Shown here: positions 3,319 to 35,579 of the stretch, piece by piece
Layout of the letters: each line of letters begins with the position of its first letter
Numbering within the stretch: position 1 is the first letter of the stretch
The notes under the pieces: generated by a model
What the model was told of the DNA's origin: nothing
Database searches by the model: none
Seen by the model: only the letters and a program-made list of their open reading frames with translations
Origin: Escherichia coli
Lineage (GTDB): Bacteria; Pseudomonadota; Gammaproteobacteria; Enterobacterales; Enterobacteriaceae
NCBI RefSeq assembly: GCF_022846255.1
Contig: NZ_AP025682.1
Strand: one strand, 5' to 3'
DNA length: 64,000 bases
Program-made: the position numbers and the translations under genes

Positions 3319-4480
<1,162 letters not shown>

Positions 4481-6971: not shown

Positions 6972-8147
6972 TTAATGCAATCCAAAAACGTTCAACATGG
7001 TAGAAAGTTTGACGCCCGTTTCGCGCCACTCACCCAACGGTGAGGACGCAGGCACAATCCCCGCTCCGGCAAACAGACGCACCTGATTTTCCCGCAGCTT
7101 CGCGCAGCGGATGGTCACCACCCATTCACCGTTACCTTCGCTGTCACACCAACCCACAATGCCGCCAAACAGTTCGCGGTCGAACGGCTCCAGTTCAGCA
7201 ATAACCTGAGTCGCGGCCTGATGCGGGAAACCGCTCAGCGCGGGGGTCGGATGCAGCAGACAAGCCAAAGTCAGTGCGTTTTCTTGCGAATTCGCTTTAC
7301 CTTCAAAGGGAGTTGCGAGATGCCACAGCGTCGGCGTGGTAATCAATTGTGGAGAGGAGGGAACGTGTAACTCACTACTGCGTTTGCGCAGTACCTCTTT
7401 CATCGCCTGAGTCACCAGTTCATGTTCATGGCGATCTTTTTCTGACGCCAGCAGACGATTACCCGCTTCGCGATCGAGCACTTCATCCGGCTGACGACGC
7501 GCGGAACCGGCTAACGGAATGGAGCTAAAACGCTCGCCGTCTTTACGTAGCAGCAGTTCCGGGCTGGCCCCCAGCAGAACGCCACCATCAGCCAGCGGGA
7601 CATGGAAGTTGTAACTAACCGGGTTTTGCGCAATCAACCGTTCCAGCAATACGCCACTATCAATGGCGGCGTCAGTGGTGATATCAATCAACCGTGACAA
7701 CACCACTTTGTCGACCTGCGGCGTGGCGGTAAGTGCGGCGGCGCGAGCAACCATCTGTTCAAACGTGGTTTGTTCCGGAATTGCCTGGCGTTCCACCACG
7801 TTCAGCGACTGGCTGCGGGTAAAACGGCGGGCTGAAGATTGTTTTTCCTGGCGGGAGAACGACTGCCAGGACTCGGGAATATACAGCGATGAAGGCTGAC
7901 GTGGATCGAAGGGAATCGCCCCGACCATCACCGGATTTTTGATGCCCTGCGCTTTGGCATCGGCAAACAACGCGGCGAGTTTTTGCTGGAAGGGACTGTC
8001 GGGCGAATCCCCGTTCACAGCCGGTTCATCGAAGCGGGCGAAACATCCTGACGTCGTAAAACTGCGGTACGGCGACATAAAGAAAAAGCGATTGGGCGCA
8101 AGTGTTGCCATGGTCTGCTGTACTTCCTCAGCCAGTGACGTATCCAT
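6972..8147 (-). CDS. entC: Isochorismate synthase
   Basis: [34 protein letters not shown]...; the track ORF begins 4 codons upstream (MEDD); chorismate-utilising enzyme family. Confidence 0.93.
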
Positions 8148-8176
8148 ATCATCCTCCACAAAATGATAAAGGCTTT

Positions 8177-9295: not shown

Positions 9296-10546
9296 TTAAC
9301 TGTCGGACGCTGTCACCTGCGGCGGCGTCTGGCGAAAACGTCGCAACTCCACCAGCACCAGCAACAACAACACGCCGATAATCAACAAACCAAAACCGCT
9401 CGCGCTTGCGGAAGCAACCGGTGTCATCATCGCGCCCAAACCGCCCAGCAGCGCCGCGCCTATGGCATCGCCCGTCACGTTTTGTGCCGTCCACAAACCG
9501 TTAATCCGCCCTAACATCGCTTCCGGGGTTTGCGTTTGCAGCATTGTATATTGCAGCAACGAACTAACCGCGCTCAGCCAGCCGAACAGCGCCAGACAAA
9601 CCACGCCTAAAATCCACATCGGCATCAGGCCAAACAAACCAATGGCGAGGAACGATCCCAGCGTGGAAAGCAGCATCAATAACCCTGGTCGCGCGCTATG
9701 TGCCAGCTTACCGCTGGTTAACGCGCCAATAGCCGCGCCGAGCGGGATCGCCGCATAGAGAAAACCAATCTGTGCCGCCGACATCTGCCAGTTGTCAGCC
9801 AGCGCCGGATACAGGACCCGCACCGCGCTCGCCATCGTCAATAAACCACCCAGCAACGCAATCCCTCCCACCAGCGGGCTGGCGAGTAGAAAACGAAATC
9901 CTGCCAGTAATGATTTCAACGGATGCTCACGCGGCTGCGGCGGTGGTGGCAACGCCGGAAGGCTTAACAACGGTAGCAAGGTAATAAACGTGCCCGCCGC
10001 CGCCAGCCCGTAGTTCCAGGCTACGCCGCCGGTCGCCAGCAGTAAACCGCCAATCATGGGCGAAATCACCGATCCCAGACGCACAGTCAACATGGTGATC
10101 GCCCCGGCCTGCATTAGGTTTTCACGCCCTACCAGTGCAGGTGTCGCCGCCAGTAGCGCCGTAACGCCAAGTGATGCGAAAAAACCATCCCATAAACCAA
10201 GTAAATAGATTGCCAGCAAAGACGGCTCCGGCAGCAGCGCATTCAGGCACAGTCCAATGAAGCCAATGCCACAGGTGCCACGCGCCAGCAAAATCACTTT
10301 TTTACGCTCATAGCGATCCGCCAGCACACCGCCGACCATCAGGCCAACAAACATCGCGCCGCCGGTCAGCGTCACCGAAAGCCCCACCTGCCAGGTAGAA
10401 TGCGTCATCATCTGGATCTGCACCGGCACCGCGACGCCGAGCAAACCCAGAGAAACAATTGAGATAAAACGAGCGAGGAATACTGCGCGAAACGCCGGGT
10501 GCGTTTTCAACAGGCTGAGGTTAAGCAGCCAGGATTGTTTATTCAT
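9296..10546 (-). CDS. entS: Enterobactin exporter (MFS)
   Basis: 416 aa MFS transporter, [34 protein letters not shown]...; divergent from fepD. Confidence 0.93.
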
Positions 10547-22625: not shown

Positions 22626-22720
22626 GTTCATGCCGGATGCGGCGTGAACGCCTTATCCGGCCTACAAAAAATCTTGCCAATTCAATATATTGCAGGACCA
22701 CGTAGGCCTGATAAGCGTAG
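22626..22720. repeat. BIME: two inverted REP units
   Basis: gccggatgcggcgtgaacgccttatccggcctaca ... gtaggcctgataagcgtagcgcatcaggca, classic REP palindromes in opposite orientation downstream of fepA. Confidence 0.7.
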
Positions 22721-22758: not shown

Positions 22759-23427
22759 ATGGTTGACATGAAAACTACGCATACCTCCCTCCCCTTTGCA
22801 GGACATACGCTGCATTTTGTTGAGTTTGATCCGGCGAGTTTTCGCGAGCAGGATTTACTCTGGCTGCCGCACTACGCACAACTTCAACACGCTGGACGTA
22901 AACGTAAAACAGAGCATTTAGCCGGGCGGATCGCTGCAGTTTATGCGCTGCGGGAATATGGCTATAAATGTGTGCCCGCAATCGGCGAGCTACGCCAACC
23001 TGTGTGGCCTGCGGAGGTATACGGCAGCATTAGTCACTGTGGGACTACGGCATTAGCCGTGGTTTCCCGTCAACCGATTGGCATTGATATTGAAGAGATT
23101 TTCTCTGCACAAACCGCAAGAGAATTGACAGACAACATTATTACACCAGCAGAACACGAGCGACTCGCAGAATGCGGTTTAACCTTTTCTCTGGCGCTGA
23201 CACTGGCATTTTCCGCCAAAGAGAGCGCATTTAAGGCAAGTGAAATCCAAACTGATGCAGGTTTTCTGGACTATCAAATTGGAAATTGTCAGCATCAACA
23301 GATGAATATAAGCGGGCCGAATGGCGACCATATCGTGCAGTGGTTAGTAAGGGGTAATAATGTTATTACCTTGTGCCTGGTAGATAAACACCCGCACACT
23401 GCAGCATGCGGGTTATCTGGCGGGTAA
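22759..23427 (+). CDS. entD: 4'-phosphopantetheinyl transferase for EntB/EntF
   Basis: MKTTHTSLPFAGHTLHFVEFDPASFREQDLLWLPHYAQLQHAGRKRKTEHLAGRIAAVYALREYGYKC...; PPTase motifs; start taken at MVDMKTT; C-terminal ~45 aa differ from the K-12 allele as I recall it. Confidence 0.85.
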   Translation: MVDMKTTHTSLPFAGHTLHFVEFDPASFREQDLLWLPHYAQLQHAGRKRKTEHLAGRIAAVYALREYGYKCVPAIGELRQPVWPAEVYGSISHCGTTALAVVSRQPIGIDIEEIFSAQTARELTDNIITPAEHERLAECGLTFSLALTLAFSAKESAFKASEIQTDAGFLDYQIGNCQHQQMNISGPNGDHIVQWLVRGNNVITLCLVDKHPHTAACGLSGG

Positions 23428-23428
23428 T

Positions 23429-24364
23429 TCAAAGCATTTCCCGTGCCTGAGCTGCAATTCCGGCAGCATCAAATCCATGATGCTGACGCAACCACCCACG
23501 ATCCGCCGCTGCGGCATATTCTCCATCCATAATGCCTGCGCGTTTTAATTTGATCCCCGTTCCGGCCTCTGCCAACACTTCCGCGACCAGGCTACCAAGG
23601 CCGCCATTGACGTTATGCTCTTCAACCGTCATCACTGCTTTGCATCCTTTTAACGCTGCCAGCAATGCTTTGGTGTCGCATGGGCGAATCGACGGTACGC
23701 TGACAACTGTAGCCGCGATACCAGACTGCGCTAAAAGTTCTGCGGCATCGACCACTTCATGAACGGTAGAGCCTGTGGCTACCAGCGCCAGTTCGCTGCC
23801 CTCGCGCAAAGTCACCACGGCACCTGGTACAAATCGGTAGTCCTCATCGTGGATTTCCGGCAGGGCTTTACCGTCCATACGGATATAAACAGGCCCCTGA
23901 TAGCGAAGAGCATAATCAATCACCTGACGGCACTCCCGAGGTGAAGACGGGGCAAAGATTTGAATATTGCCGAAACCACGCATAACCGCAATGTCATCAA
24001 TCGCATGATGCGTGCTCGCCAGCGGTCCATAACTCGCCCCGGCATTCAGACCAAACAATTTTACGTTGGTAAAGTTGTAGCAGACATCAACCTTGATTTG
24101 CTCGTTAGCGCGAGCGATAAGAAATGGCGCGGCATTGCAGGTAACAGCCACCTTGCCGCCCAGCGCCAGCCCGGCAGCGGCACCAACCATGCTCTGTTCG
24201 GCAATACCCACATTCACCAGTCGGTCAGGAAATTGCTTAATAAAGGGAGCAATTTTTGCCGTAGACGTTGAATCAGCCACTACAGGCACCAAATCGATCC
24301 CCTCATTTACGGCATCGATAAATGCCTGAACCATCACATTTGCCAGATGTTCACTGTTACGCAT
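23429..24364 (-). CDS. Transketolase C-terminal (pyrimidine-binding) subunit of a split transketolase
   Basis: 311 aa, MRNSEHLANVMVQAFIDAVNEGIDLVPVVADSTSTAKIAPFIKQFPDRLVNVGIAEQSMVGAAAGLALGGK...; overlaps the N-subunit gene by 8 bp. Confidence 0.85.
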   Translation of the reverse strand: MRNSEHLANVMVQAFIDAVNEGIDLVPVVADSTSTAKIAPFIKQFPDRLVNVGIAEQSMVGAAAGLALGGKVAVTCNAAPFLIARANEQIKVDVCYNFTNVKLFGLNAGASYGPLASTHHAIDDIAVMRGFGNIQIFAPSSPRECRQVIDYALRYQGPVYIRMDGKALPEIHDEDYRFVPGAVVTLREGSELALVATGSTVHEVVDAAELLAQSGIAATVVSVPSIRPCDTKALLAALKGCKAVMTVEEHNVNGGLGSLVAEVLAEAGTGIKLKRAGIMDGEYAAAADRGWLRQHHGFDAAGIAAQAREML

Positions 24365-25187
24365 CTTTGAGTTCCTTCAGTGCCTGTTCAATTTCATCGC
24401 CTTTCGGCACCCGGTGATGCCATTCCGCACGCCCTTGTATAAAGGAAATGCCTGCCCCTTTAGTGGTGTGGGCAATCACCACATTCGGTTTGCCTTCCTG
24501 TTTAAGCCCTTCAAGCGTCGCGACAACCGAAGCCATATCATTGCCCTGACATTCGGTAACCTGCATACCGAATGCCAGCCATTTCTCTGCCAGAGGATCG
24601 GTGTTCATGATTTCGCGCGTTGGCCCGGCTAATTGCAGATTATTTTTGTCATTAATAATGACCAGGTTATCAAGCCCGTAATGCGCCGCCGCCAGTGCAG
24701 CTTCCCAGTTACTGCCCTCAGCCAGCTCACCATCGCCAGTAATTAAGAAGATACGACGACGGCTTTGACTTTTTTTCGCCGCCAGCGCAAGTCCTACAGC
24801 CACAGGGAAACCATGTCCCAGTGCTCCGGTATTCAGTTCAATACCTGGCGTTTTTTGCCGAACCGGATGGCCGGGTAAGTGTGAATTTGGCTGCTGATAA
24901 GTGGAAAGCCATTCCAGTGGGAAGAATCCTGCTTCCGCCAGCACGCAGTAGTAACATCCAACAGCATGGCCTTTTGACTGAATGTATATATCCCGGTCAT
25001 CGTCGTGAAGGCGATCCGGGGCGACATTGAGAATACGAAAATAGAGTGCGGTCAGTAATTCAACCTGAGAGAGATCGGCCCCAGTGTGTCCACCTGCCGG
25101 GCTATTGGCATTTAAGCGCACGATATGGCAGCGTACCGCCCGCGCTTTACGCTCAAGGGTCTGGATATCATAGCTATAGGGATTCAT
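24357..25187 (-). CDS. Transketolase N-terminal (thiamine-diphosphate binding) subunit
   Basis: 276 aa with TPP-binding GDGELAEGSNWEAALAAAHYGLDNLVIINDKN motif; first gene of a two-gene unit divergent from the regulator. Confidence 0.85.
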   Translation of the reverse strand: MNPYSYDIQTLERKARAVRCHIVRLNANSPAGGHTGADLSQVELLTALYFRILNVAPDRLHDDDRDIYIQSKGHAVGCYYCVLAEAGFFPLEWLSTYQQPNSHLPGHPVRQKTPGIELNTGALGHGFPVAVGLALAAKKSQSRRRIFLITGDGELAEGSNWEAALAAAHYGLDNLVIINDKNNLQLAGPTREIMNTDPLAEKWLAFGMQVTECQGNDMASVVATLEGLKQEGKPNVVIAHTTKGAGISFIQGRAEWHHRVPKGDEIEQALKELKDA

Positions 25188-25367
25188 TTAATACCTCTGA
25201 ATTTATTTTCAACATGGAATATTTATTCCACCGGGGACTAAAAAAACCAGAAATCCCAGGGCGTTGCGCGGCAAGACTTACGCTGCTGCATCATACTCAG
25301 GAACATTCTGCCTCCTTACACCGTCAGTTACGTGTCCGGGTAATCATCAGTTGACCTGATATCATCT

Positions 25368-25381
25368 TGAATATATATTCA
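25368..25381. promoter_or_regulatory. Palindrome TGAATATATATTCA in the transketolase / regulator divergent promoter region; candidate operator
   Basis: Direct reading; the same 12-bp core GAATATATATTC recurs at 26729..26740 upstream of the kinase-transporter operon. Confidence 0.45.
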
Positions 25382-25549
25382 ATAATGATTCTTTATTCAA
25401 TTATGCCGCCTGTTTTTTATTTTTGTCCATCGCTGATTTTAAGGATTGGTTAAAGTTAGAACTCCATCACACTTAACTGTCTTCTTTTTTCGCGTATGAT
25501 AAAAGCCTCTAAGATAAGGGCGGTACGTTAATGATTTACGGGGAAATAT

Positions 25550-26500
25550 ATGGCTAAGCAGGATGAACAGCGGCTACTGGTGAAGATCGCCACTCTTTAC
25601 TATCTTGAGGGGCGAAAACAGTCTGACATCGCCCAACTTCTCTCGCTTTCTCAGTCATTTATCTCCAGAGCGCTAACCCGTTGCCAGAAAGAAGGCGTGG
25701 TTAAAATCAGCGTTGTCCAGCCGTCAAATATCTTTCTCAATCTGGAAAAAGGCATTGAAGAGCGTTACGGCATTAAACAAGCGATTGTTGTCGATACCGA
25801 AGATGATGCCACTGACCATACCATTAAACGTGCTATCGGCTCTGCCGCCGCGCACTATCTGGAAACGCGTTTAAGACCAAAAGATTTCATTGGCGTCTCT
25901 TCCTGGAGTTCTACGATTCGCGCGATGGTCGATGAAGTTCACGCCCAAAACTTAAAAGCCAGCGGCGTTATTCAGCTGCTGGGCGGCGTGGGGCCAAACG
26001 GCAATGTGCAGGCAACTATTTTGACACAGACCCTGGCCCAGCATCTGAATTGCGAAGCCTGGTTGCTTCCTTCTCAAAGCATTGAAGGTTCGGTAGAAGA
26101 GAAAAAACGCCTGGTGGCAAGCCAGGATGTGGCTGACGTTATCGCCAGATTTGACGACGTCGATATCGCCATTGTCGGCATCGGTATCCTTGAACCCTCG
26201 CAGTTGCTAAAAACCTCGGGCAACTATTATCACGAGGATATGTTACAGGTACTGGCGGATCGCGGTGCTGTGGGCGATATCTGCCTGCACTACTACGATA
26301 AACATGGTCAGCCCGTGTTGCAGGACGATGAAGATCCAGTGATTGGTATGGCACTGGATAAAATCAAAAAATGCCCGAATGTGGTGGCACTGGCGGGCGG
26401 CAAAGACAAAGTTGCCGCCATCAAAGGCGCCATGCAGGGTGGTTATATTGATGTTTTGATCACTGATTTCCCCACCGCCAGAATGCTGATTGCGGATTAA
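25550..26500 (+). CDS. SorC/DeoR-family sugar-binding transcriptional regulator
   Basis: 316 aa; N-terminal HTH (QSDIAQLLSLSQSFISRALTRCQKEGVV) and C-terminal sugar-phosphate-binding domain typical of SorC/DeoR/EryD regulators. Confidence 0.85.
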   Translation: MAKQDEQRLLVKIATLYYLEGRKQSDIAQLLSLSQSFISRALTRCQKEGVVKISVVQPSNIFLNLEKGIEERYGIKQAIVVDTEDDATDHTIKRAIGSAAAHYLETRLRPKDFIGVSSWSSTIRAMVDEVHAQNLKASGVIQLLGGVGPNGNVQATILTQTLAQHLNCEAWLLPSQSIEGSVEEKKRLVASQDVADVIARFDDVDIAIVGIGILEPSQLLKTSGNYYHEDMLQVLADRGAVGDICLHYYDKHGQPVLQDDEDPVIGMALDKIKKCPNVVALAGGKDKVAAIKGAMQGGYIDVLITDFPTARMLIAD

Positions 26501-26523
26501 TCCTCTCCTCCCTTTCTTCTGCC

Positions 26524-26552
26524 CGCCTTTGCGAAAAAATCTTCTCGCAAAG
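26524..26552 (+). terminator. Hairpin downstream of the regulator gene; candidate intrinsic terminator
   Basis: cctttgcgaaaaaatcttctcgcaaagg forms a 9-bp stem; the 3' flank is not strongly T-rich, so strength is uncertain. Confidence 0.35.
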
Positions 26553-26646
26553 GCGCTTGCTTAAAAATCCTTTAATATCAATAAACTGAAATGATTCAAC
26601 AATCCTGTTTCTCGAGGCTTTCTCACCCTGTCACCACGCTTCTAAG

Positions 26647-26662
26647 TGTGATAGCCAGCACA
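26647..26662. promoter_or_regulatory. CRP-like site TGTGA-N6-GCACA upstream of the kinase-transporter operon
   Basis: tgtgatagccagcaca; 4/5 + 5/5 match to the CRP half-sites TGTGA/TCACA; about 190 bp upstream of the kinase start. Confidence 0.35.
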
Positions 26663-26728
26663 TTTGATGATTTTTTCTCTAGCTCAGGAAGAATAATCTG
26701 GCTAAGGTATAAATAAATAATCAGCATC

Positions 26729-26740
26729 GAATATATATTC
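26729..26740. promoter_or_regulatory. Second copy of the GAATATATATTC palindrome; candidate operator of the kinase-transporter-dehydrogenase operon
   Basis: Direct reading; identical 12-bp core to 25369..25380. Confidence 0.45.
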
Positions 26741-26850
26741 ACGCCTTAACACAAAATGTCACAGCAGGGCCTGATGAAGTAATAACGTGACCATGAGGAA
26801 CGCCTCATCTCCTTCCACGCCAGGATGCAATGTGACTCAGGAGACTACCT

Positions 26851-28371
26851 ATGTTTGCAGGAAATAAAGAGTTCGTTGTTGCGTTGGATGAGGGTACCAC
26901 CAATGTAAAAGCCATCGCACTTGATGGTTTCGGTAACGTGGTGGCGAAGTTTTCTCAACCACTGGCTATTCAGACGCCACGTGAAGGCTGGGTTGAGCAA
27001 TCCGGGGAAGCGTTAATCTCTGCCTCGCTTGATGTTATTGCCCAGGCCATCAACCACGTGGGGGCAGAAAATGTAGCGGCTCTGGCTATCAGTAATCAGC
27101 GTGAAACGGCTATCGGCTGGTATCGTCAGAGTGGAAAACCACTCAATGCGGCGATTACCTGGCAATGCACGCGCAGTGCAGAGTTTTGTGAAACACTTCG
27201 TCGCGAGGGCAAAGAGCAGCAAATTAAAACGACTACAGGCCTGCCTATCGCCCCGCTATTTTCCGCGTCCAAGATGCGTTGGCTACTGGAATCTACACCT
27301 GAGGGTGTGCAACTTGCCGACCAGGGTGAAATTTGTCTCGGCACCATTGATGCCTGGTTGCTATGGAACTTGACTGCTGGCGATTCATTTTGCTGCGACT
27401 ACTCTAACGCCGCGCGAACTCAATTACTTAACCTGAAAACAGGCGAGTGGGATGAGGAAATGCTGGCGTTGTTTCACATCCCACGCGCTGCATTGCCAGA
27501 AATTAAACCTTCCAGTGGCCTGTTCGGTTATACCCGAGGACTTAAAACAATTCCGGATGGTATTCCCGTCATGGCGATGGTGGGCGATTCTCACGCCGCT
27601 CTTTTTGGTCATGCGTTGGGAGAAGCGGGATGTGTGAAGGCGACCTATGGGACCGGTTCTTCCGTCATGGCCCCCGTCAACTCTGCTCAGTGTGATATCG
27701 CCACACTTGCCACAACCATTGCCTGGCATGATGGCGAAAATATTATTTACGGTCTGGAAGGAAATATCCCCCACACCGGCGATGCCGTGGCATGGATGGC
27801 TGACAGCACCGGTTTAAGTGAACTGACAGACGCGGAGCTGGCCCACGAACTGAATACCCTGCCAGCCTCAGTGGATTCGACTATGGGTGTTTATTTTGTT
27901 CCTGCTCTCACTGGCCTGGGCGCGCCATGGTGGGATGACAGCGCTCGCGGCGTGGTGTGTGGCTTAAGCCGTGGCGTAAAGCGCGCGCATTTGATTCGTG
28001 CCGCAATGGAATCAATCACTTATCAAATTGCAGATGTAGTGGAGGCAATGCAACAGCATGATGATTTTCACTTATCGGCGTTAATGGTGGATGGCGGCCC
28101 GACCAAAAATGACTGGTTGATGCAATATCAGGCGGATCTGCTGGGTTGCCCGGTGATGCGCAGTGATGTGCCAGAGCTTTCAGCCATTGGTGCGGGCCTG
28201 CTCGCCCGCAAAGCGCTTATCCCCGGTACCGTTGCAGATTTAAAAGCGTTATTAACTGAACACAGTGAATTTAAACCGGACATGGCGCGTCATCAGCGAC
28301 TGCAAAAGAGATGGCAGGAGTGGCGTCATGCGGTAAACAGAACATTATGGAAACCGGCATCGTCAATTTGA
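26851..28371 (+). CDS. FGGY-family carbohydrate kinase (xylulokinase / glycerol kinase-like)
   Basis: 506 aa, MFAGNKEFVVALDEGTTNVKAIALDGFGNVVAKF...; FGGY N- and C-terminal domain signatures. Confidence 0.85.
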   Translation: MFAGNKEFVVALDEGTTNVKAIALDGFGNVVAKFSQPLAIQTPREGWVEQSGEALISASLDVIAQAINHVGAENVAALAISNQRETAIGWYRQSGKPLNAAITWQCTRSAEFCETLRREGKEQQIKTTTGLPIAPLFSASKMRWLLESTPEGVQLADQGEICLGTIDAWLLWNLTAGDSFCCDYSNAARTQLLNLKTGEWDEEMLALFHIPRAALPEIKPSSGLFGYTRGLKTIPDGIPVMAMVGDSHAALFGHALGEAGCVKATYGTGSSVMAPVNSAQCDIATLATTIAWHDGENIIYGLEGNIPHTGDAVAWMADSTGLSELTDAELAHELNTLPASVDSTMGVYFVPALTGLGAPWWDDSARGVVCGLSRGVKRAHLIRAAMESITYQIADVVEAMQQHDDFHLSALMVDGGPTKNDWLMQYQADLLGCPVMRSDVPELSAIGAGLLARKALIPGTVADLKALLTEHSEFKPDMARHQRLQKRWQEWRHAVNRTLWKPASSI

Positions 28372-28474
28372 CGAACAAGACTAACCAACGGAAGGAGAAT
28401 ACCGGCCCATAAATAATTCAGGCTTTACGTTGTTTCACCGTACCCGACAATAACAACACAGAGAGAACATTGTC

Positions 28475-29410
28475 ATGAAATTACGTTTAACACTGTTAAC
28501 CGCTGCGACCCTGACTGCTCTTTCTTTTTCTGCTCATGCGGTAGAAAAAGGAACCATTATGATTATGGTCAATTCACTGGATAATCCTTATTACGCCTCG
28601 GAAGCGAAAGGTGCCAGTGAAAAAGCCCAGCAACTGGGATATAAAACGACCATTCTTTCTCATGGTGAAGATGTCAAAAAACAGAATGAACTGATCGATA
28701 CTGCAATTGGTAAAAAAGTTCAGGGCATTATTTTAGATAATGCCGACTCCACTGCCAGTGTTGCAGCCATTGAAAAAGCAAAAAAAGCAGGTATTCCCGT
28801 TATATTAATTAATCGCGAAATACCTGTGGATGATGTTGCACTGGTGCAAATTACCCATAATAACTTCCAGGCTGGCTCGGAAGTTGCCAACGTATTTGTC
28901 GAGAAAATGGGAGAGAAAGGAAAATATGCCGAACTCACCTGTAATCTTGCTGATAATAATTGCGTAACTCGCTCGAAATCTTTCCATCAGGTCATTGACC
29001 AGTTCCCTGAAATGGTCAGCGTGGCGAAGCAAGATGCCAAAGGCACGTTAATTGATGGCAAACGGATAATGGACAGTATTCTGCAAGCCCATCCCGATGT
29101 AAAAGGGGTGATTTGTGGTAATGGTCCGGTTGCACTGGGAGCTATCGCAGCACTGAAAGCAGCCAATCGCAATGACGTTATTGTTGTCGGCATTGATGGC
29201 AGTAACGATGAGCGCGATGCCGTGAAAGCCGAATCATTGCAGGCTACCGTGATGTTACAAGCGCAAGCCATTGCCGCGCAGGGGGTTACCGATTTGGATA
29301 ATTACCTGCAAAAAGGAGTTAAACCAGCCAAACAGCGGGTGATGTTCCGCGGCATTCTGATAACCAAAGATAACGCAGATAAAGTCCAGGATTTCAATAT
29401 CAAATCCTGA
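28475..29410 (+). CDS. Periplasmic sugar-binding protein of an ABC transporter (RbsB-like)
   Basis: 311 aa with signal peptide MKLRLTLLTAATLTALSFSAHA; periplasmic binding protein type I fold. Confidence 0.85.
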   Translation: MKLRLTLLTAATLTALSFSAHAVEKGTIMIMVNSLDNPYYASEAKGASEKAQQLGYKTTILSHGEDVKKQNELIDTAIGKKVQGIILDNADSTASVAAIEKAKKAGIPVILINREIPVDDVALVQITHNNFQAGSEVANVFVEKMGEKGKYAELTCNLADNNCVTRSKSFHQVIDQFPEMVSVAKQDAKGTLIDGKRIMDSILQAHPDVKGVICGNGPVALGAIAALKAANRNDVIVVGIDGSNDERDAVKAESLQATVMLQAQAIAAQGVTDLDNYLQKGVKPAKQRVMFRGILITKDNADKVQDFNIKS

Positions 29411-29456
29411 TCCCAGGTCGTTGCGCCCTCACAATGAGGGCGCAGAGGAGAATATT

Positions 29457-30077
29457 ATGGATAAAAAAGTCTGGCTGGCGCTGGCAATTCTGAGCCTGGG
29501 TGGATGTCGCATCGTCTCGCAGCAGGAACTTGCCGATCTCAAATCCCCGCCTAATCCTCATATGGCAAATATCGATCAGACCTGGCAGAAAAATATCGTG
29601 CCGCAGGTGGTAGAAAATGCACGTCCGGTTGCGGAGTTAATGGCGGCGCTACAGGCAGAAAAAGATGTCGATGCTGCCTGTAAAACGCTGGGCTATCGTT
29701 CTCAGGAAGAAAACCCGTGTATTTTCTACGTTAAGGTCGAAGGTGGCATCACCAATATTGATGCGAAATCCCGTAGCGGAAAAATGACCATCACAGATAT
29801 CAGCGGCACAAATATTGTCGTGCAGACGGGGCCAACTCTTCGCGGCACGCTTCTGCGAGATGCATATAAAGGTGCAAGCTATGAGCATTTTAACGATCAG
29901 GTTTTATTTGGTGAATATGGTCGTGCTATCAATGAGCAAGCCATCAATATGATTCAGTCGGCAAAGCTTAAAACCGGGGAAACGGTTCAGGTTTATGGCG
30001 TATTTTCTGCATGGGATATTCCGCAAACTATCCCGGATATAACGCCTGCGAAAATAGCCAGGGCGGGAGGCGAGTAA
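29457..30077 (+). CDS. DUF2291-like predicted lipoprotein embedded in the ABC transporter operon
   Basis: MDKKVWLALAILSLGGC... with a lipobox LSLGGC; start chosen at the internal Met with the signal peptide rather than the track start at 29421. Confidence 0.65.
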   Translation: MDKKVWLALAILSLGGCRIVSQQELADLKSPPNPHMANIDQTWQKNIVPQVVENARPVAELMAALQAEKDVDAACKTLGYRSQEENPCIFYVKVEGGITNIDAKSRSGKMTITDISGTNIVVQTGPTLRGTLLRDAYKGASYEHFNDQVLFGEYGRAINEQAINMIQSAKLKTGETVQVYGVFSAWDIPQTIPDITPAKIARAGGE

Positions 30078-30078
30078 T

Positions 30079-31623
30079 ATGTTGCCGCAAGAAATTGACA
30101 CCCCCCAGACTGATGAATCACCTGTAATCATAGAAACGCATGACTTATCGCGTATTTATCCGGGTGTGGTGGCGTTAGATAACGTGAATTACCGTGTCTA
30201 TCGCAATAGAGTGAATGTGCTTATTGGTGAAAACGGTGCGGGTAAATCCACAATGATGAAAATGCTGGCGGGGGTTGAAACACCTTCCTCAGGCAAGATC
30301 ATTCTTGATGGTAAAGAAGTTACCCTAAATTCTACCCATCAGGCCGAAAAACATGGAATTAGTATCATTTTTCAGGAACTGAATTTATTCCCGAATATGA
30401 ATGTCATAGATAACATTTTCATGGCGAATGAATTTTTTCAGAAAGGGAAGATTAACGAAAAATATCAGTATGAATTAGCCAAATCTTTATTAGAGAGACT
30501 GGAGTTGGACGTTGATCCCTATACCCAACTGGGAGAACTTGGTATTGGTCATCAGCAACTGGTGGAGATTGCCCGTGCCCTTTCTAAAGATACCCGGGTA
30601 CTGATTATGGATGAACCGACCTCGGCCCTCAGCCAGTCGGAAGTCAAAGTACTTTTCAATGTGATCGCACAACTGAAGCGCCGTGGTGTCACCATCATTT
30701 ATATCTCCCACCGTCTGGAAGAGTTGATGGAGATTGGCGATTTCATCACCATTTTCCGTGATGGTCGCTTTATTAGTGAACGCGCAGTGAGCGATGCCAG
30801 TATTCCGTGGATCATCGCACAAATGGTCGGTGATAAGAAAAAACATTTTGATTATCAACCAGCTACACAAGGTGACACTGTACTGGCGGTACTGGGGTTA
30901 ACGGCGCTGCATCCCAGCGGTGGTTACAAACTCAATGATGTGACATTCAACCTGCGTAAAGGCGAAGTTATCGGCATTTACGGCTTGCTGGGCGCAGGAC
31001 GTACTGAGCTATTTAAAGGACTGGTGGGCCTGATGCCCTGTCAGAGTGGGAAGATCCTGCTTAATGGTGAAACCATCGACAAATGCCATTTCCAGGCGCG
31101 GCTCAAAAAGGGGCTGGCGTTGGTGCCAGAAGATCGCCAGGGCGAAGGCGTCGTTCAGATGATGTCGATTCAGTCCAATATGACGCTATCCGATTTCAGC
31201 CTGCAAGGTTTTCGCCGTGCCTGGAAATGGCTGAATCCGCAAAAAGAGAGCGCCAGTGTGAAAGAGATGATCCAGCAACTGGCGATCAAAGTCAGTGATG
31301 CCGAACTCCCTATTACCTCACTCAGCGGCGGTAACCAGCAAAAAGTGGTACTTGGCAAAGCGTTGATGACCCAGCCACAGGTGGTGTTTCTTGATGAACC
31401 CACACGCGGCATTGATGTTGGCGCAAAAACCGACGTCTATCAGCTGGTGGGAAAAATGGCACAACAGGGGCTGGCAGTCATGTTCTCTTCTTCAGAACTC
31501 GATGAAGTCATGGCACTGGCAGATCGCATTCTGGTGATGGCTGATGGCCGTATTACCGCTGATCTACCCCGGGGCGAAGTCACCCGAGAGAAACTGATCG
31601 CGGCTTCAACACCTCAAGATTAA
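30079..31623 (+). CDS. Sugar ABC transporter ATPase with duplicated ATP-binding domains (RbsA-like)
   Basis: 514 aa; Walker A GENGAGKST in the first half, a second nucleotide-binding domain, signature LSGGNQQK. Confidence 0.9.
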   Translation: MLPQEIDTPQTDESPVIIETHDLSRIYPGVVALDNVNYRVYRNRVNVLIGENGAGKSTMMKMLAGVETPSSGKIILDGKEVTLNSTHQAEKHGISIIFQELNLFPNMNVIDNIFMANEFFQKGKINEKYQYELAKSLLERLELDVDPYTQLGELGIGHQQLVEIARALSKDTRVLIMDEPTSALSQSEVKVLFNVIAQLKRRGVTIIYISHRLEELMEIGDFITIFRDGRFISERAVSDASIPWIIAQMVGDKKKHFDYQPATQGDTVLAVLGLTALHPSGGYKLNDVTFNLRKGEVIGIYGLLGAGRTELFKGLVGLMPCQSGKILLNGETIDKCHFQARLKKGLALVPEDRQGEGVVQMMSIQSNMTLSDFSLQGFRRAWKWLNPQKESASVKEMIQQLAIKVSDAELPITSLSGGNQQKVVLGKALMTQPQVVFLDEPTRGIDVGAKTDVYQLVGKMAQQGLAVMFSSSELDEVMALADRILVMADGRITADLPRGEVTREKLIAASTPQD

Positions 31624-31640
31624 TCAGGCTGGAATTTCTT

Positions 31641-32708
31641 ATGAATCAGAAATATATGATCTATATGTACCTGTTGAAAGCCAGAACGTTTATCGCTCTG
31701 CTGTTAGTGATCGCCTTCTTTAGCGTGATGGTGCCTAACTTCCTGACGGCCTCTAACCTGCTGATTATGACTCAACACGTTGCGATTACCGGGCTGCTGG
31801 CAATCGGAATGACGCTGGTGATCCTGACAGGCGGCATCGATCTTTCCGTCGGCGCGGTAGCGGGGATCTGCGGAATGGTTGCCGGGGCTCTGCTAACAAA
31901 CGGCCTGCCATTGTGGAGCGGCGATATTATTTTCTTCAACGTACCGGAAGTGATCCTCTGCGTGGCGGTATTTGGCATTTTAGTGGGACTGGTGAATGGT
32001 GCGGTAATCACCCGCTTTGGTGTCGCGCCCTTTATCTGCACCCTCGGTATGATGTACGTCGCCCGTGGCTCTGCCCTGCTGTTTAATGATGGCAGCACTT
32101 ACCCCAATCTCAACGGCATGGAGGCACTGGGCAACACGGGTTTCGCCACCCTTGGTTCTGGCACGTTTTTAGGCGTTTATTTGCCAATCTGGCTGATGAT
32201 TGGCTTTTTGATTTTAGGCTACTGGATCACGACTAAAACGCCGCTCGGTCGTTATATCTATGCCATTGGTGGCAATGAATCTGCCGCGCGACTGGCAGGC
32301 GTACCCATCGTAAAAGTCAAAGTGTTCGTCTATGCGTTCTCCGGATTATGCGCCGCATTTGTCGGTTTGATTGTTGCCTCGCAGCTGCAAACCGCTCACC
32401 CAATGACCGGCAATATGTTCGAAATGGATGCTATCGGTGCCACGGTTCTTGGTGGAACTGCGCTGGCAGGTGGTCGGGGACGTGTCTCTGGCTCGATTAT
32501 CGGTGCCTTTGTCATTGTCTTCCTCGCCGATGGCATGGTGATGATGGGGGTCAGTGATTTCTGGCAAATGGTCATTAAAGGCCTCGTTATCGTCACCGCC
32601 GTGGTAGTCGATCAGTTCCAGCAAAAATTGCAAAACAAAGTCATTTTGATGCGTCGCCATGAAGAAAAGATGGCCGCCGCACCTGCCGTAAAACCGCTTT
32701 CCAGTTAA
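31641..32708 (+). CDS. Sugar ABC transporter permease (RbsC-like)
   Basis: 355 aa polytopic membrane protein of the monosaccharide ABC permease family. Confidence 0.85.
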   Translation: MNQKYMIYMYLLKARTFIALLLVIAFFSVMVPNFLTASNLLIMTQHVAITGLLAIGMTLVILTGGIDLSVGAVAGICGMVAGALLTNGLPLWSGDIIFFNVPEVILCVAVFGILVGLVNGAVITRFGVAPFICTLGMMYVARGSALLFNDGSTYPNLNGMEALGNTGFATLGSGTFLGVYLPIWLMIGFLILGYWITTKTPLGRYIYAIGGNESAARLAGVPIVKVKVFVYAFSGLCAAFVGLIVASQLQTAHPMTGNMFEMDAIGATVLGGTALAGGRGRVSGSIIGAFVIVFLADGMVMMGVSDFWQMVIKGLVIVTAVVVDQFQQKLQNKVILMRRHEEKMAAAPAVKPLSS

Positions 32709-32761
32709 TTAACATCATTCCGCCGGGCATTAAATTGCCCGGCTTATACAGGGGAAAAAAT

Positions 32762-33559
32762 ATGCAACGTAATTTTCAGGGTAAGACTGTAGTTATTACC
32801 GGGGCATGCCGGGGAATTGGGGCCGGGATCGCTGAACGCTTCGCCCGCGATGGCGCAAATCTGGTGATGGTTTCTAACGCTGCACGCGTGCATGAAACTG
32901 CTGAGCAACTGCGCCAATGTTATCAGGCTGACATTTTGTCATTAGAAGTCGATGTGACAGATGAAGCGCAAGTACAGGCACTCTATGAACAAGCGGCTGC
33001 ACGTTTTGGCAGCATCGATGTTTCCATTCAGAATGCAGGCATTATCACCATCGATTATTTTGATCGAATGCCGGCTGCTGATTTCGAAAAAGTGCTGGCG
33101 GTGAACACTACGGCAGTCTGGCTCTGCTGCCGGGAAGCAGCCAAATATATGGTGAAACAAAATCACGGCTGCCTGATCAACACCTCTTCTGGCCAGGGAC
33201 GTCAGGGGTTTATCTATACCCCACACTATGCAGCCAGCAAAATGGGTGTGATCGGCATTACGCAAAGCCTGGCGCACGAGTTAGCGCAGTGGAATATCAC
33301 TGTTAACGCCTTCTGCCCTGGTATTATCGAAAGCGAAATGTGGGACTACAACGACCGCGTATGGGGAGAAATTCTCAGTACCGATGACAAGCGTTATGGC
33401 AAAGGCGAGCTTATGGCGGAATGGGTGGAAGGTATTCCGATGAAGCGTGCCGGTAAACCTGAAGATGTTGCCGGACTGGTTGCCTTCCTCGCCTCTGACG
33501 ATGCGCGTTATCTCACCGGTCAAACCATCAACATCGACGGCGGCCTGATTATGTCGTAA
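32762..33559 (+). CDS. Short-chain dehydrogenase/reductase (polyol / sugar dehydrogenase-like)
   Basis: MQRNFQGKTVVITGACRGIGAGIAERFA...; TGxxxGIG Rossmann motif and catalytic YxxxK; ATG at 32762 preferred over the upstream TTG-initiated track start. Confidence 0.8.
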   Translation: MQRNFQGKTVVITGACRGIGAGIAERFARDGANLVMVSNAARVHETAEQLRQCYQADILSLEVDVTDEAQVQALYEQAAARFGSIDVSIQNAGIITIDYFDRMPAADFEKVLAVNTTAVWLCCREAAKYMVKQNHGCLINTSSGQGRQGFIYTPHYAASKMGVIGITQSLAHELAQWNITVNAFCPGIIESEMWDYNDRVWGEILSTDDKRYGKGELMAEWVEGIPMKRAGKPEDVAGLVAFLASDDARYLTGQTINIDGGLIMS

Positions 33560-33591
33560 TGCCCCTGCGGGCTACTAAGAGAGATATCAAA

Positions 33592-34377
33592 ATGATCGCA
33601 AAAGATTTTGCTCAACAATTGTTTGATCTCCACGATCGCGTCGCCTTTGTCACTGGCGCAGGTAGCGGTATCGGACAAATGATCGCTCTGGCTTTAGCCA
33701 GCGCAGGCGCACGAGTGGTGTGTTTTGATCTACGGGAAGATGGCGGACTCAAAGAGACGGTTAATCATATCGAAGCACTTGGCGGACAAGCCTTGTATTA
33801 CACGGGCGATGTTCGGGAATTGAGAGATCTTCGCGCAGCAGTCGCTCTGGCAAAAACACATTTTGGTCGTCTGGATATTGCCGTAAACGCCGCTGGAATC
33901 GCTAACGCAAACCCGGCGCTGGAGATGGAAAGCGAGCAATGGCAACGCGTTATCGATATCAACCTGACTGGTGTGTGGAATTCCTGTAAGGCGGAAGCCG
34001 AGTTAATGGTAGAGAACGGAGGCGGCTCGATTATAAATATTGCGTCAATGTCCGGGATTATCGTCAATCGCGGTCTGGAACAGGCTCACTACAACAGCTC
34101 CAAAGCAGGCGTGATTCATTTATCTAAAAGTCTTGCGATGGAATGGGTGAGTAAAGGGATCCGTGTGAACTCAATCAGTCCAGGATATACCGCAACACCA
34201 ATGAATACCCGACCTGAAATGGTGCATCAGACTCGGGAGTTTGAAATCCAGACGCCGATTCAGCGGATGGCGAAAGTGGAAGAGATGGCGGGTCCAGCGC
34301 TGTTCCTTGCCAGCGATGCGGCGTCGTTCTGCACTGGTGTTGATCTGGTGGTCGATGGTGGTTTTGTCTGCTGGTAA
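33592..34377 (+). CDS. Second short-chain dehydrogenase/reductase
   Basis: MIAKDFAQQLFDLHDRVAFVTGAGSGIGQMIALALA...; SDR motifs; start at 33592 preferred for its upstream gagag Shine-Dalgarno, with 33559 as alternative. Confidence 0.8.
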   Translation: MIAKDFAQQLFDLHDRVAFVTGAGSGIGQMIALALASAGARVVCFDLREDGGLKETVNHIEALGGQALYYTGDVRELRDLRAAVALAKTHFGRLDIAVNAAGIANANPALEMESEQWQRVIDINLTGVWNSCKAEAELMVENGGGSIINIASMSGIIVNRGLEQAHYNSSKAGVIHLSKSLAMEWVSKGIRVNSISPGYTATPMNTRPEMVHQTREFEIQTPIQRMAKVEEMAGPALFLASDAASFCTGVDLVVDGGFVCW

Positions 34378-34486
34378 AAATGGTTTCGCCCGCAGCCATC
34401 ACTGACCGCGGGCGAAAGTGTAAAGCAGGTGCCTTACCACCCTGACCTGACAACCGGATATGCGGGGATTGCTCCCCGCACAACGG

Positions 34487-34639
34487 CTACTTCTTCGGTT
34501 CGTAAGCGAGAACAACCTTAAACTCAATATTACGTTCCTTTACGGTAAACTCACACAGCGAGTCTCCGACCAGAAGCGTAAATCCCAGCACCGTTAAACA
34601 CAGCACTATGACTGCCACAAGGGCATATTTCGTCAGCAT
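34487..34639 (-). CDS. hokE: Hok-family small membrane toxin, copy 1 (variant with V at the position where copy 2 has A)
   Basis: [50 protein letters not shown], 50 aa; Hok family signature; overlapped by mok-like ORF 34551..34739. Confidence 0.8.
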
Positions 34640-34739
34640 GTTTATATTGCCTCCATGCGAAGAAGGGACTACCATCCAAATTGTTCAGGTTTGGGTAGGT
34701 AGCCCCAAGGTTGATAGAAATATCGTCCTGGGGCTTCAT
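34551..34739 (-). CDS. mokE: mok-like overlapping reading frame, copy 1
   Basis: 62-aa ORF overlapping the hok start in a different frame, as in hok/mok/sok loci. Confidence 0.5.
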
Positions 34740-34990
34740 CTTTCCAGACCTCAGAGTAAACCTGAAACCGGAAAGCTTCAGGCACCCGCAGTTATCTTAC
34801 CCTTCCTTAGCAAAATAGCTGTTTATTTATACAGTGAGTCCTGTTTAGGACTTTTCACCTGTATTATCGCCCATGCCAGTAAAACGAAATCGCCCGCAGC
34901 CATCTCTGACTGCGGGCGAAAGTGTAAAGCAGGTGCCTTACCATCCTGACCTGACAACCGGATATGCGGGGATTACTCCCCGCACAACGG

Positions 34991-35143
34991 CTACTTCTTC
35001 GGTTCGTAAGCGAGAACAGCCTTAAACTCAATATTACGTTCCTTTACGGTAAACTCACACAGCGAGTCTCCGACCAGAAGCGTAAATCCCAGCACCGTTA
35101 AACACAGCACTATGACTGCCACAAGGGCATATTTCGTCAGCAT
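34991..35143 (-). CDS. hokE: Hok-family small membrane toxin, copy 2
   Basis: [50 protein letters not shown], 50 aa; the copy adjacent to ybdK. Confidence 0.85.
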
Positions 35144-35243
35144 GTTTATATTGCCTCCATGCGAAGAAGGGACTACCATCCAAATTGTTCAGGTTTGGGT
35201 AGGTAGCCCCAGGGTTGATAGAAATATCGTCCTGGGGCTTCAT
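35055..35243 (-). CDS. mokE: mok-like overlapping reading frame, copy 2
   Basis: 62-aa ORF overlapping the hok start in a different frame. Confidence 0.5.
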
Positions 35244-35579
35244 CTTTCCAGACCTCAGAGTAAACCTGAAACCGGAAAGCTTCAGGCACCCGCAGTTATC
35301 TTACCCTTCCTTAGCAAAATAGCTGTTTATTTATACAGTGAGTCCTGTTTCGGACTTCTCATTTAATCAACTGAAGCTGAACCCGTTTTTTTCTGCATGC
35401 CTCAATCGTCAAAATTCTTCGCCGCCAGCCAGCTCTGCCATAACTTGTCACATTGCAAAAGTAGCCAAATTGCTTCAGTCACAATCAGTTCTCCATCACC
35501 AAAAAAAGAAACATTCCAGAACTTCCGCATCTCACCCAGCCGCTCCCACTTCTATACTGAATAGAAAACGCCAACATAA

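Follow-up and report, generated by a model that had tools for sequence, protein, structure and literature searches.

The window analysed here is a stretch of 64,000 nucleotides from the Escherichia coli contig NZ_AP025682.1 (assembly GCF_022846255.1), and it contains, next to entD, a gene island relative to E. coli K-12. Two adjacent genes on the minus strand, aptA and aptB, encode the two parts of a transketolase, and diverge from a gene for a SorC-family regulator that is followed by a kinase, transport and oxidoreductase operon (table 1). The preliminary description had read aptA and aptB as separate open reading frames of 276 and 311 aa, overlapping by 8 bp, without stating their strand; the reading-frame listing and the Pfam assignments both bear this out.

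Table 1. Features of the aptAB island, in coordinates of the window.
Feature	Coordinates	Strand	Description
Island relative to E. coli K-12	23280..34384		~11.1 kb; its left junction falls within entD and its right junction ahead of the hokE/sokE module (blastn against the K-12 locus)
aptB	23429..24364	minus	936 bp, 311 aa, ATG start; transketolase C-terminal subunit (Pyr and C-terminal domains)
aptA/aptB overlap	24357..24364	minus	8 bp, coding-strand sequence ATGCGTAA; the start of aptB falls within the stop of aptA
aptA	24357..25187	minus	831 bp, 276 aa, ATG start; transketolase N-terminal subunit (PP/ThDP-binding domain)
Operator-like pair 1	25198..25229		14-bp palindromes, consensus TGAATATATATTCA, 18-bp spacing; 11 nt 5′ of the aptA ATG
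Operator-like pair 2	25368..25399		Between the diverging aptA and regulator genes, overlapping promoter-like hexamers of both strands
SorC-family transcriptional regulator	25550..26500	plus	Sugar-bind domain, PF04198 (E = 5e-62); divergent from aptAB
Operator-like pair 3	26710..26741		110 nt 5′ of the kinase/transport/SDR operon
FGGY-family kinase (aplK, apulose kinase, in PMC13001218)	26851..28371	plus	Glycerol-kinase-like, under the GlpK cutoff
ABC sugar importer	28475..32708	plus	RbsB-like binding protein 28475–29410; DUF2291 protein 29421–30077; ATPase 30079–31623; permease 31641–32708
SDR oxidoreductase 1	32735..33559	plus	RefSeq start equivalent to 32762
SDR oxidoreductase 2	33559..34377	plus	RefSeq start equivalent to 33592; NF004774, 507 bits (cutoff 360)

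The domain content of the two proteins is that of a transketolase divided in two. AptA matches Transketolase_N (PF00456, E = 4.9e-39), while AptB matches Transket_pyr (PF02779, E = 1.3e-23) followed by Transketolase_C (PF02780, E = 2.6e-26), and these matches lie far beyond chance. Scores against the NCBIfam transketolase equivalogs all fall far under the cutoffs, for example 241 bits (AptA) and 185 bits (AptB) against a threshold of 488. An identity as DXS was considered and rejected: the transketolase model outscores the dxs model for AptA (241 versus 49 bits) and for AptB (185 versus 142 bits), and the nearest solved structures are transketolases. As had been proposed, the arrangement differs from that of the one-chain TktA and TktB, since two polypeptides together make up 587 aa compared with 663 aa for E. 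coli TktA. Alignment to TktA places the end of AptA at about residue 280 and the start of AptB at about residue 351, so that the linker of approximately 70 aa found in single-chain transketolases is missing from the pair.

The two genes are tightly joined. The aptB ATG lies within the final codons of aptA (...AAA GAT GCG TAA), and a Shine–Dalgarno-like AAGGA is found about 9 nt 5′ of the overlap ATGCGTAA. This overlap suggests translational coupling, which would probably yield AptA and AptB in equal amounts.

The preliminary description had called for an alignment to TktA as a check on the catalytic residues, and every cofactor-binding and catalytic position is found to be kept. AptA H34, H74, H107, G121, D152, N182 and H258 correspond to TktA H26, H66, H100, G114, D155, N185 and H261; these include the ThDP/Mg2+ motif GDG...N, with AptA D152-G153 and N182 at TktA D155-G156 and N185. 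On the second chain, AptB E56 aligns with TktA E411, the cofactor-activating glutamate, which is invariant in 122/122 representatives, and AptB H119 aligns with the catalytic histidine H473, present in 119 of the 122. AptA contributes the diphosphate- and Mg-binding PP domain, and AptB the pyrimidine-binding domain (with Glu56 and His119) together with the C-terminal domain; the active site is formed between the two chains.

The substrate-binding positions are another matter. In canonical transketolases, R358, H461, D469 and R520 (E. coli TktA numbering) bind the sugar phosphate and the acceptor C2-OH. In a MAFFT alignment limited to three sequences, with TktA set against concatenated AptA and AptB, sections of the C-terminal half were misplaced (S385 and R358 are examples); residue calls for AptB were therefore made from a 126-sequence alignment and cross-checked against a HMMER alignment to 6YAJ. 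The larger alignment places A8, N107, L115 and G165 of AptB at these four positions, and the independent HMMER alignment confirms three of the four replacements. Among 122 related split C-subunits, the R358 equivalent is an arginine in 97, and all four residues are kept in 18. AptB has therefore lost four canonical substrate-binding residues, a point that weighs against the reaction proposed below for AptAB. Neither a single chain of 620–680 aa nor this set of four residues, the hallmarks of TktA and TktB, is found in the pair.

Adjacent open reading frames that lie in different frames and overlap briefly are also the pattern left by a 1-bp indel, and the pair could in principle be a frameshifted or decaying copy of one full-length transketolase gene, produced by a sequencing error or present as a pseudogene. 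All 630 complete E. coli genomes with the region, however, have it annotated as two genes, and an identical junction, AAAGATGNGTAA, is found in Salmonella and Pectobacterium, where the orthologues share 71–84% protein identity and synonymous divergence is saturated. Homologues in the Enterobacterales are mostly 276 aa long, and in more distant split transketolase pairs the genes overlap too, by 4 bp. Neither gene has internal stops, pN is 0.10–0.20 against a saturated pS of 0.66–0.78, no remnant of the ~70-aa linker is present, and the other frames across the junction reach stops at once. An active split transketolase of the same architecture has, moreover, already been solved. Strong purifying selection acts on both aptA and aptB, and the comparative data refute the frameshift or pseudogene explanation, to which we give virtually no chance of being right. 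Both of the outcomes that had been named in advance as fatal to a functional split enzyme, a frameshift error and missing catalytic residues, are contradicted by the conservation of layout and junction across the 630 E. coli genomes, Salmonella and Pectobacterium, by the retention of every ThDP/Mg and catalytic residue, and by a pN far under pS.

The island corresponds to a cluster that is already in the literature. In a 2026 paper in J Bacteriol (PMC13001218), a D-apiose degradation cluster with genes named aplK, aptA and aptB is placed downstream of the enterobactin genes and entD, and is described as typical of E. coli ST131 and ST14/ST1193. The split gene pair is therefore known and named, and the observation, though right, has a published precedent. 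That paper also reports that D-apiose as the only carbon source sustained cluster-positive E. coli (ST131, ST1193) and E. fergusonii but not K-12, evidence that is correlative in that it compares cluster-positive strains with K-12. E. coli SE15 carries the nearest described version: ECSF_RS02710 (aptA in PMC13001218) has 98.9% nucleotide identity and three amino-acid differences, and ECSF_RS02715 (aptB there) has 98.8% nucleotide identity and one amino-acid difference. The SE15 cluster shares the locus abutting entD, the gene order, the gene lengths and the 8-bp overlap, and differs only allelically; the whole island gene set is 97.1–99.4% identical in nucleotides to ECSF_RS02670–02715, the kinase gene being 99.2% identical to ECSF_RS02700.

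Within the species, the aptAB region occurs in 630 of 5,426 complete genomes (11.6%), while 5,425 of them have a full-length tktA. Since the near-universal tktA exists alongside the island, the split enzyme must be accessory and not housekeeping. Across the complete E. coli genomes, whole-island identity reaches at most 98.9%, and the lineage of the window is not exactly represented in that collection; an origin in E. fergusonii, considered for that reason, was rejected because the core genes flanking the island are 99.7% identical to E. coli. The earlier suggestion that the enzyme serves a dedicated island pathway is supported both by this coexistence with tktA and by the match to the published D-apiose catabolic cluster (PMC13001218).

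Comparison with related clusters reveals that the genes around aptAB have unequal affinities. The regulator is 70% identical to its Pectobacterium counterpart and 87% to that of Salmonella. The FGGY kinase shares 44% identity with the Pectobacterium cluster kinase and 71% with the kinase of the Salmonella variant, and apulose kinase itself is listed as EC 2.7.1.233 with UniProt entry Q6D5T8 in one preprint. Importer proteins are 26–54% identical to those of Pectobacterium (45% for the binding protein). SDR2 is 87% identical to the sole SDR of the Salmonella variant, no orthologue of SDR1 was found in the Pectobacterium or Salmonella clusters compared, and the family matches of both SDRs are generic. 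The D-apiose isomerase gene apsI is absent from the E. coli island, which has the two SDRs instead. The cluster is thus a mosaic, with the kinase and one SDR nearer to the Salmonella variant than to Pectobacterium.

The island contains three pairs of palindromic, operator-like motifs (table 1). Salmonella and Pectobacterium have a palindrome pair at the matching place, 11–14 nt 5′ of aptA, and the paired motif is conserved in the three genera. It is probable that the divergent SorC-family regulator would control expression through these paired TGAATATATATTCA sites as candidate operators.

Taken together, the evidence makes it very likely that aptA and aptB encode the subunits of a heterotetrameric (α2β2), ThDP-dependent split transketolase belonging to the D-apiose island downstream of entD in phylogroup B2 (ST131, ST14/ST1193). 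By analogy with the enzyme of Carboxydothermus hydrogenoformans, for which this has been established, the AptA/AptB heterotetramer would need both chains. In the proposed pathway, the ABC transporter would import D-apiose, which would be converted to apulose, in E. coli probably through apiitol by the action of the two SDRs, given that the island has no isomerase ApsI. The FGGY kinase would then phosphorylate apulose, and AptAB would move the C1–C2 glycolaldehyde unit from apulose-4-phosphate to glyceraldehyde-3-phosphate, to yield xylulose-5-phosphate and dihydroxyacetone phosphate (DHAP). An SDR bypass has already been put forward, as a proposal, in the accessible text of PMC13001218, in which we found no mention of the active-site signature, the mosaic origin or the TGAATATATATTCA operator pairs.

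With a kinase 44% and a binding protein 45% identical to those of Pectobacterium, and with the isomerase missing, the steps that feed AptAB differ between the two genera. A joint reading, to which we attach about even confidence, is that the E. coli and Salmonella clusters constitute a biochemically distinct, isomerase-free variant of the apiose system: SDR1 would reduce D-apiose to apiitol, SDR2 would oxidise apiitol to apulose, and the 44%-identical kinase would supply an AptAB devoid of all four substrate-binding residues. The loss of R358, H461, D469 and R520 would mean that AptAB accommodates a branched, phosphorylated substrate as no solved transketolase does, Lys166 being one candidate for a replacement of these residues. 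The Salmonella version, with an MFS transporter and SDR2 only, could be a system for apiitol or another polyol.

Two other functions have to be weighed. The pair might be a general-purpose third transketolase that backs up TktA and TktB in the pentose phosphate pathway and is not tied to one substrate. A back-up transketolase-like role is reportedly known for the split TktC of Salmonella Typhimurium, a review mentions tktC of that organism as regulated like tktB, and AptAB keeps all ThDP-binding and catalytic residues; split transketolases can also have broad activity in vitro (PMC7661550). A general role is nevertheless very improbable, as AptB has no equivalents of R358, H461, D469 and R520, the genes are confined to 11.6% of E. 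coli genomes while tktA is universal, and in three genera they always lie inside a regulated cluster for sugar uptake, a kinase and an oxidoreductase or isomerase, with a candidate operator beside aptA.

The second possibility concerns the substrate: the main natural substrate of the island might be a related polyol or ketose, such as apiitol or some other sugar alcohol, branched or short-chain; AptAB would in that case cleave the ketose phosphate derived from it, and growth on apiose would be a side activity. The 71% (kinase) and 87% (SDR2) identities link the island to a Salmonella cluster with an MFS transporter, one SDR and no isomerase, a layout that fits a route from polyol to ketose to ketose phosphate, and the low identity to Pectobacterium of the kinase and binding protein (44–45%) and the generic family matches of the SDRs point the same way. 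Against this stand the use of D-apiose as sole carbon source by cluster-positive E. coli and E. fergusonii (PMC13001218) and the 71–79% identity of AptA and AptB to the Pectobacterium pair, with the AptB active-site signature unchanged, evidence in favour of a shared transketolase substrate. We regard a different main substrate as quite improbable, and were it apiitol the AptAB reaction would be unchanged, so that this alternative touches the upstream steps more than the transketolase.

The island and its probable split transketolase matter for several reasons. ST131 and ST14/ST1193, both pandemic ExPEC clones, have the island as a lineage marker, and the plant cell-wall sugar that it makes available to them in the gut bears on nutrient-niche explanations of their success (PMC13001218). 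AptAB is a clear case of a split, substrate-specialised transketolase in a mesophile, and its occurrence there contradicts PMC7661550, according to which only full-length enzymes are found in mesophiles. The ketone product (DHAP) and an active site without the canonical phosphate-binding residues make it worth considering for structural work and for biocatalysis.

Split transketolases dedicated to a single catabolic pathway are known elsewhere. SqwGH, the 6-deoxy-6-sulfofructose transketolase of the sulfo-TK pathway (PMC11659671), is likewise encoded by split genes and, as AptAB would, passes a C2 ketol unit of an unusual ketose to glyceraldehyde-3-phosphate, forming xylulose-5-phosphate; the substrate and organisms differ, and the comparison is drawn from the published description. 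Among solved structures, the nearest is the split transketolase of C. hydrogenoformans (6YAK/6YAJ), which has a PP chain and a Pyr/C-terminal chain and lacks the linker, as do AptA and AptB (AptA against the 6YAK N-chain, E = 5e-74; AptB against the 6YAJ/6YAK C-chain, E = 1.5e-56). That enzyme is an active α2β2 assembly in which either subunit alone is inactive and the ~70-aa PP–Pyr linker is missing, and it is the sole transketolase of its host, whereas AptAB is accessory (PMC7661550). Its C-chain keeps the His, Asp and Arg equivalent to TktA H461, D469 and R520, where AptB has Asn107, Leu115 and Gly165.

E. coli TktA and TktB (EC 2.2.1.1) have in common with AptAB the ThDP/Mg motif, the catalytic histidines and the activating glutamate. 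TktA is, by contrast, a single 663-aa chain with the linker, encoded by a core gene, and its R358, H461, D469 and R520 are not kept in AptB; identity is about 30% to AptA and about 23% to AptB, as measured against Salmonella TktA.

The Salmonella cluster variant, which adjoins tktA, comprises an MFS transporter, one SDR, an FGGY kinase and a SorC regulator, and has no isomerase. Its transketolase homologues had been suspected of being the published split TktC; their neighbourhood is that of a variant of the D-apiose-type cluster. Among the close homologues and the Pectobacterium clusters, the curated name 'apulose-4-phosphate transketolase' does not occur, 'transketolase' being the only name given, and a literature search for 'apulose' with 'transketolase' returned no match.

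EC 2.2.1.13 denotes the conversion of apulose-4-phosphate and glyceraldehyde-3-phosphate to xylulose-5-phosphate and DHAP. The apulose-4-phosphate transketolase AptA/AptB of Pectobacterium was reportedly described by Carter et al. in 2018 (Nat Chem Biol 14:696, as cited in PMC13001218). The pair of P. carotovorum consists of proteins of 276 and ~314 aa with the same overlapping junction, and AptA and AptB are 78.5% and 71% identical to it. The Pectobacterium cluster likewise contains an FGGY kinase, an ABC transporter with a DUF2291 protein, a SorC-type regulator and the same operator motif 5′ of aptA. The two systems differ in that the Pectobacterium cluster includes an isomerase of the AP_endonuc_2 type (apsI) but no SDR, while the E. 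coli island has two SDRs and no isomerase; that the kinase and transporter proteins are only 26–54% identical between them; and that aptAB is co-oriented with, and downstream of, the transporter genes in Pectobacterium, whereas in E. coli it is divergent from the rest of the cluster.

The transketolase of this island is encoded by two minus-strand open reading frames (ORFs), termed aptA (N-terminal subunit) and aptB (C-terminal subunit), and the ORF listing reproduces exactly the coordinates, lengths and overlap given in the preliminary description. On the coding strand aptA ends in AAA GAT GCG TAA and the aptB ATG lies inside this junction (ATGCGTAA), with a Shine-Dalgarno-like AAGGA ~9 nt 5′ of the aptB start. 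Each ORF covers only half of the NCBIfam transketolase models and scores far under the full-length cutoffs, as expected of half-proteins.

Relative to K-12, the island comprises ~11.1 kb. Besides the split transketolase it carries genes for a SorC-family regulator in divergent orientation, an FGGY kinase, two SDR oxidoreductases and an ABC importer composed of an RbsB-like binding protein, a DUF2291 protein, an ATPase and a permease. The locus has been reported as a D-apiose degradation cluster (J Bacteriol 2026, PMC13001218). Its authors place the cluster downstream of the enterobactin genes and found it in every complete ST131-complex and ST14-complex genome that they screened, in a small number of further B2 sequence types and in roughly one quarter of E. 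fergusonii genomes; strains with the cluster grew on D-apiose as sole carbon source and K-12 did not. The same paper names the kinase of E. coli SE15 aplK (ECSF_RS02700) and its transketolase genes aptA and aptB (ECSF_RS02710, ECSF_RS02715), and describes the Escherichia cluster as having two putative oxidoreductases in place of the isomerase apsI. The SE15 locus and the window are collinear for nine of nine genes at 97.1–99.4% nucleotide identity; aptA is 98.9% identical with three amino-acid differences and aptB 98.8% with one. This collinearity and near-identity identify the window pair as the aptA/aptB already named and published for the D-apiose island of E. coli.

Identity to SE15 is uneven, which hints at recombination inside the island: the ATPase, permease and SDR2 genes (within 30079-34377) are 97.1–97.3% identical and the other island genes 98.6–99.4%. 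Whole-island identity to any complete E. coli genome is at most 98.9%. The ABC ATPase gene, intact in the window, is annotated as frameshifted in isolate AF16 (L001 20780-22325), and two other strains have an IS150 insertion inside the island, so that it may no longer be functional in some carriers. On the left, the island junction falls within entD, where K-12 homology ends at 23279, and therefore the last ~49 EntD codons differ from K-12. The entD stop (ending at 23427) and the convergent aptB stop (starting at 23429) are 1 nt apart, and a terminator-like hairpin for aptB lies within the entD coding sequence. At the right boundary the hokE/sokE module is duplicated in tandem, at a site where K-12 has a single copy and IS186.

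Coordinates of the split transketolase genes, island edges and paired palindromes (window unless stated)
Feature	Coordinates	Strand	Remark
aptA	24357..25187	minus	276 aa; Pfam Transketolase_N E=4.9e-39
aptB	23429..24364	minus	311 aa; Pfam Transket_pyr 1.3e-23, Transketolase_C 2.6e-26
aptA/aptB overlap	24357-24364		8 bp
Island	23280-34384		
SorC-family regulator	25550..26500	plus	
FGGY kinase	26851..28371	plus	
SDR1	32735..33559	plus	
SDR2	33559..34377	plus	
Rfam ES036 (CssrF) sRNA match	22668-22709		in the intergenic region between fepA and entD; 42.2 bits (gathering score 37.6)
Terminator-like hairpin	23390-23413	minus	
Right island boundary	34385-35300		
Rfam sok matches	34631-34787, 35135-35291		
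Duplicated short K-12 entD-proximal segment	34385-34476, 34890-34980		
Palindrome pair 1	25198-25229		11 nt upstream of aptA ATG
Palindrome pair 2	25368-25399		divergent promoter region
Palindrome pair 3	26710-26741		upstream of kinase operon
Salmonella (L005) palindrome pairs	3728-3759, 8142-8173, 9794-9825, 9959-9990		spacing as in window
Pectobacterium (L002) palindrome pairs	5521-5552, 9956-9987		spacing as in window

[quoted passage not shown] The alignment to full-length TktA proposed in the preliminary description places the split between TktA residues ~280, where AptA stops, and ~351, where AptB starts (587 aa in total versus 663 aa). Equivalents of the catalytic residues are present: AptA H34, H74, H107, G121, D152, N182 and H258 correspond to TktA H26, H66, H100, G114, D155, N185 and H261, and AptB E56 and H119 to TktA E411 and H473.

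AptB was also aligned, with its Salmonella and Pectobacterium orthologs, to TktA and 122 representative split-transketolase C-subunits, and these three proteins depart from TktA at five positions. TktA R358 is Ala8 in AptB (Arg in 97 of the 122 representatives), H461 is Asn107 (variable; Gly 38, His 28), D469 is Leu115 (Leu 51, Asp 21), G470 is Ala116 (Gly in 118) and R520 is Gly165 (Arg 58, Lys 23); the complete canonical R-H-D-R set is retained in 18 representatives. A separate HMMER alignment to 6YAJ matches the signature at three of the positions. In canonical transketolases the lost residues bind the substrate phosphate and the acceptor C2-OH. Given this five-position signature, AptB is by alignment without these canonical binding residues, which fits an altered specificity.

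The comparative evidence excludes a frameshifted pseudogene of a single transketolase gene. Among 5,426 complete E. coli genomes, 630 have the 2.1-kb aptAB region, which is invariably chromosomal and adjoins entD, and is annotated as two genes in every E. coli case among the matches listed. The 8-bp overlap and AAAGATGNGTAA junction are common to the P. carotovorum, S. enterica and window pairs, and homologs, mostly 276 aa and 77–90% identical, are found in Citrobacter, Salmonella, Pantoea, Pectobacterium, Yersinia and Serratia. Against the Salmonella and Pectobacterium orthologs, pN is 0.10–0.20 while synonymous sites are saturated (pS 0.66–0.78), with dN/dS of 0.03–0.10 where estimable. The layout is thus conserved across genera, and the catalytic residues are kept.

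AptAB is unlikely to be a general back-up transketolase: AptB has lost substrate-binding residues, the genes sit in a regulated catabolic setting in three genera, and their distribution is accessory. A full-length tktA is found in 5,425 of 5,426 E. coli genomes, making AptAB an accessory, pathway-dedicated enzyme and supporting the earlier proposal of a dedicated island role rather than housekeeping. AptAB (EC 2.2.1.13) reportedly takes the C1-C2 glycolaldehyde unit from apulose-4-phosphate and passes it to glyceraldehyde-3-phosphate, yielding xylulose-5-phosphate and dihydroxyacetone phosphate (Carter et al. 2018). Window AptA and AptB are 78.5% and 71% identical to the Pectobacterium pair, with an identical active-site signature; from these likenesses and the published growth phenotype we infer that window AptAB would likewise convert apulose-4-phosphate and glyceraldehyde-3-phosphate to xylulose-5-phosphate and dihydroxyacetone phosphate. 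For the steps upstream of AptAB, a primary substrate other than D-apiose, such as a polyol, is possible, and would probably leave the AptAB reaction unchanged.

A 14-bp palindrome with the consensus TGAATATATATTCA occurs in pairs, spaced 18 bp start to start, at three places in the window, all in island intergenic regions; elsewhere in the 64 kb there are just three matches, each with three mismatches. The number of matches observed at the Salmonella and Pectobacterium loci was reached in 0 of 100 shuffles of either, and in all three sequences one pair lies 11–14 nt upstream of the aptA start codon. The SorC-family regulator probably uses these paired palindromes as its operator.

Comparison with other clusters, gene by gene, indicates that the island is a mosaic. 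AptA, AptB and the regulator are 70–79% identical to those of Pectobacterium, whereas identity is far lower for the kinase (44%), binding protein (45%), DUF2291 protein (26%), ATPase (47%) and permease (54%). In the Salmonella variant, which adjoins tktA, the aptAB pair and the regulator are accompanied by an FGGY kinase, a single SDR and an MFS transporter. This variant is nearer to the window throughout (AptA 84%, AptB 81%, regulator 87%, kinase 71%, SDR2 87%), which leaves AptA, AptB, regulator, kinase and SDR2 as the conserved core. SDR1 has no counterpart in the Salmonella or Pectobacterium cluster. This core is compatible with SDR2 as a predicted apiitol-to-apulose dehydrogenase and SDR1 as a predicted added apiose reductase. 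More distant metagenomic split pairs (L007 7153-10447, L008 735-8942 and a JGI contig) are 40–56% identical to AptB, their genes adjacent with 4-bp overlaps. The L007 and L008 pairs belong to sugar clusters that include isomerases (Fucose_iso_C) and ABC transporters; L007 additionally has an FGGY kinase and an SDR, and L008 a DUF2291 protein. These pairs suggest that many further substrate-specialised split transketolases exist, as yet uncharacterised. As far as the accessible text of the published account of the D-apiose locus extends, the AptB active-site signature, the mosaic cluster and the operator-like motif are additions to it.
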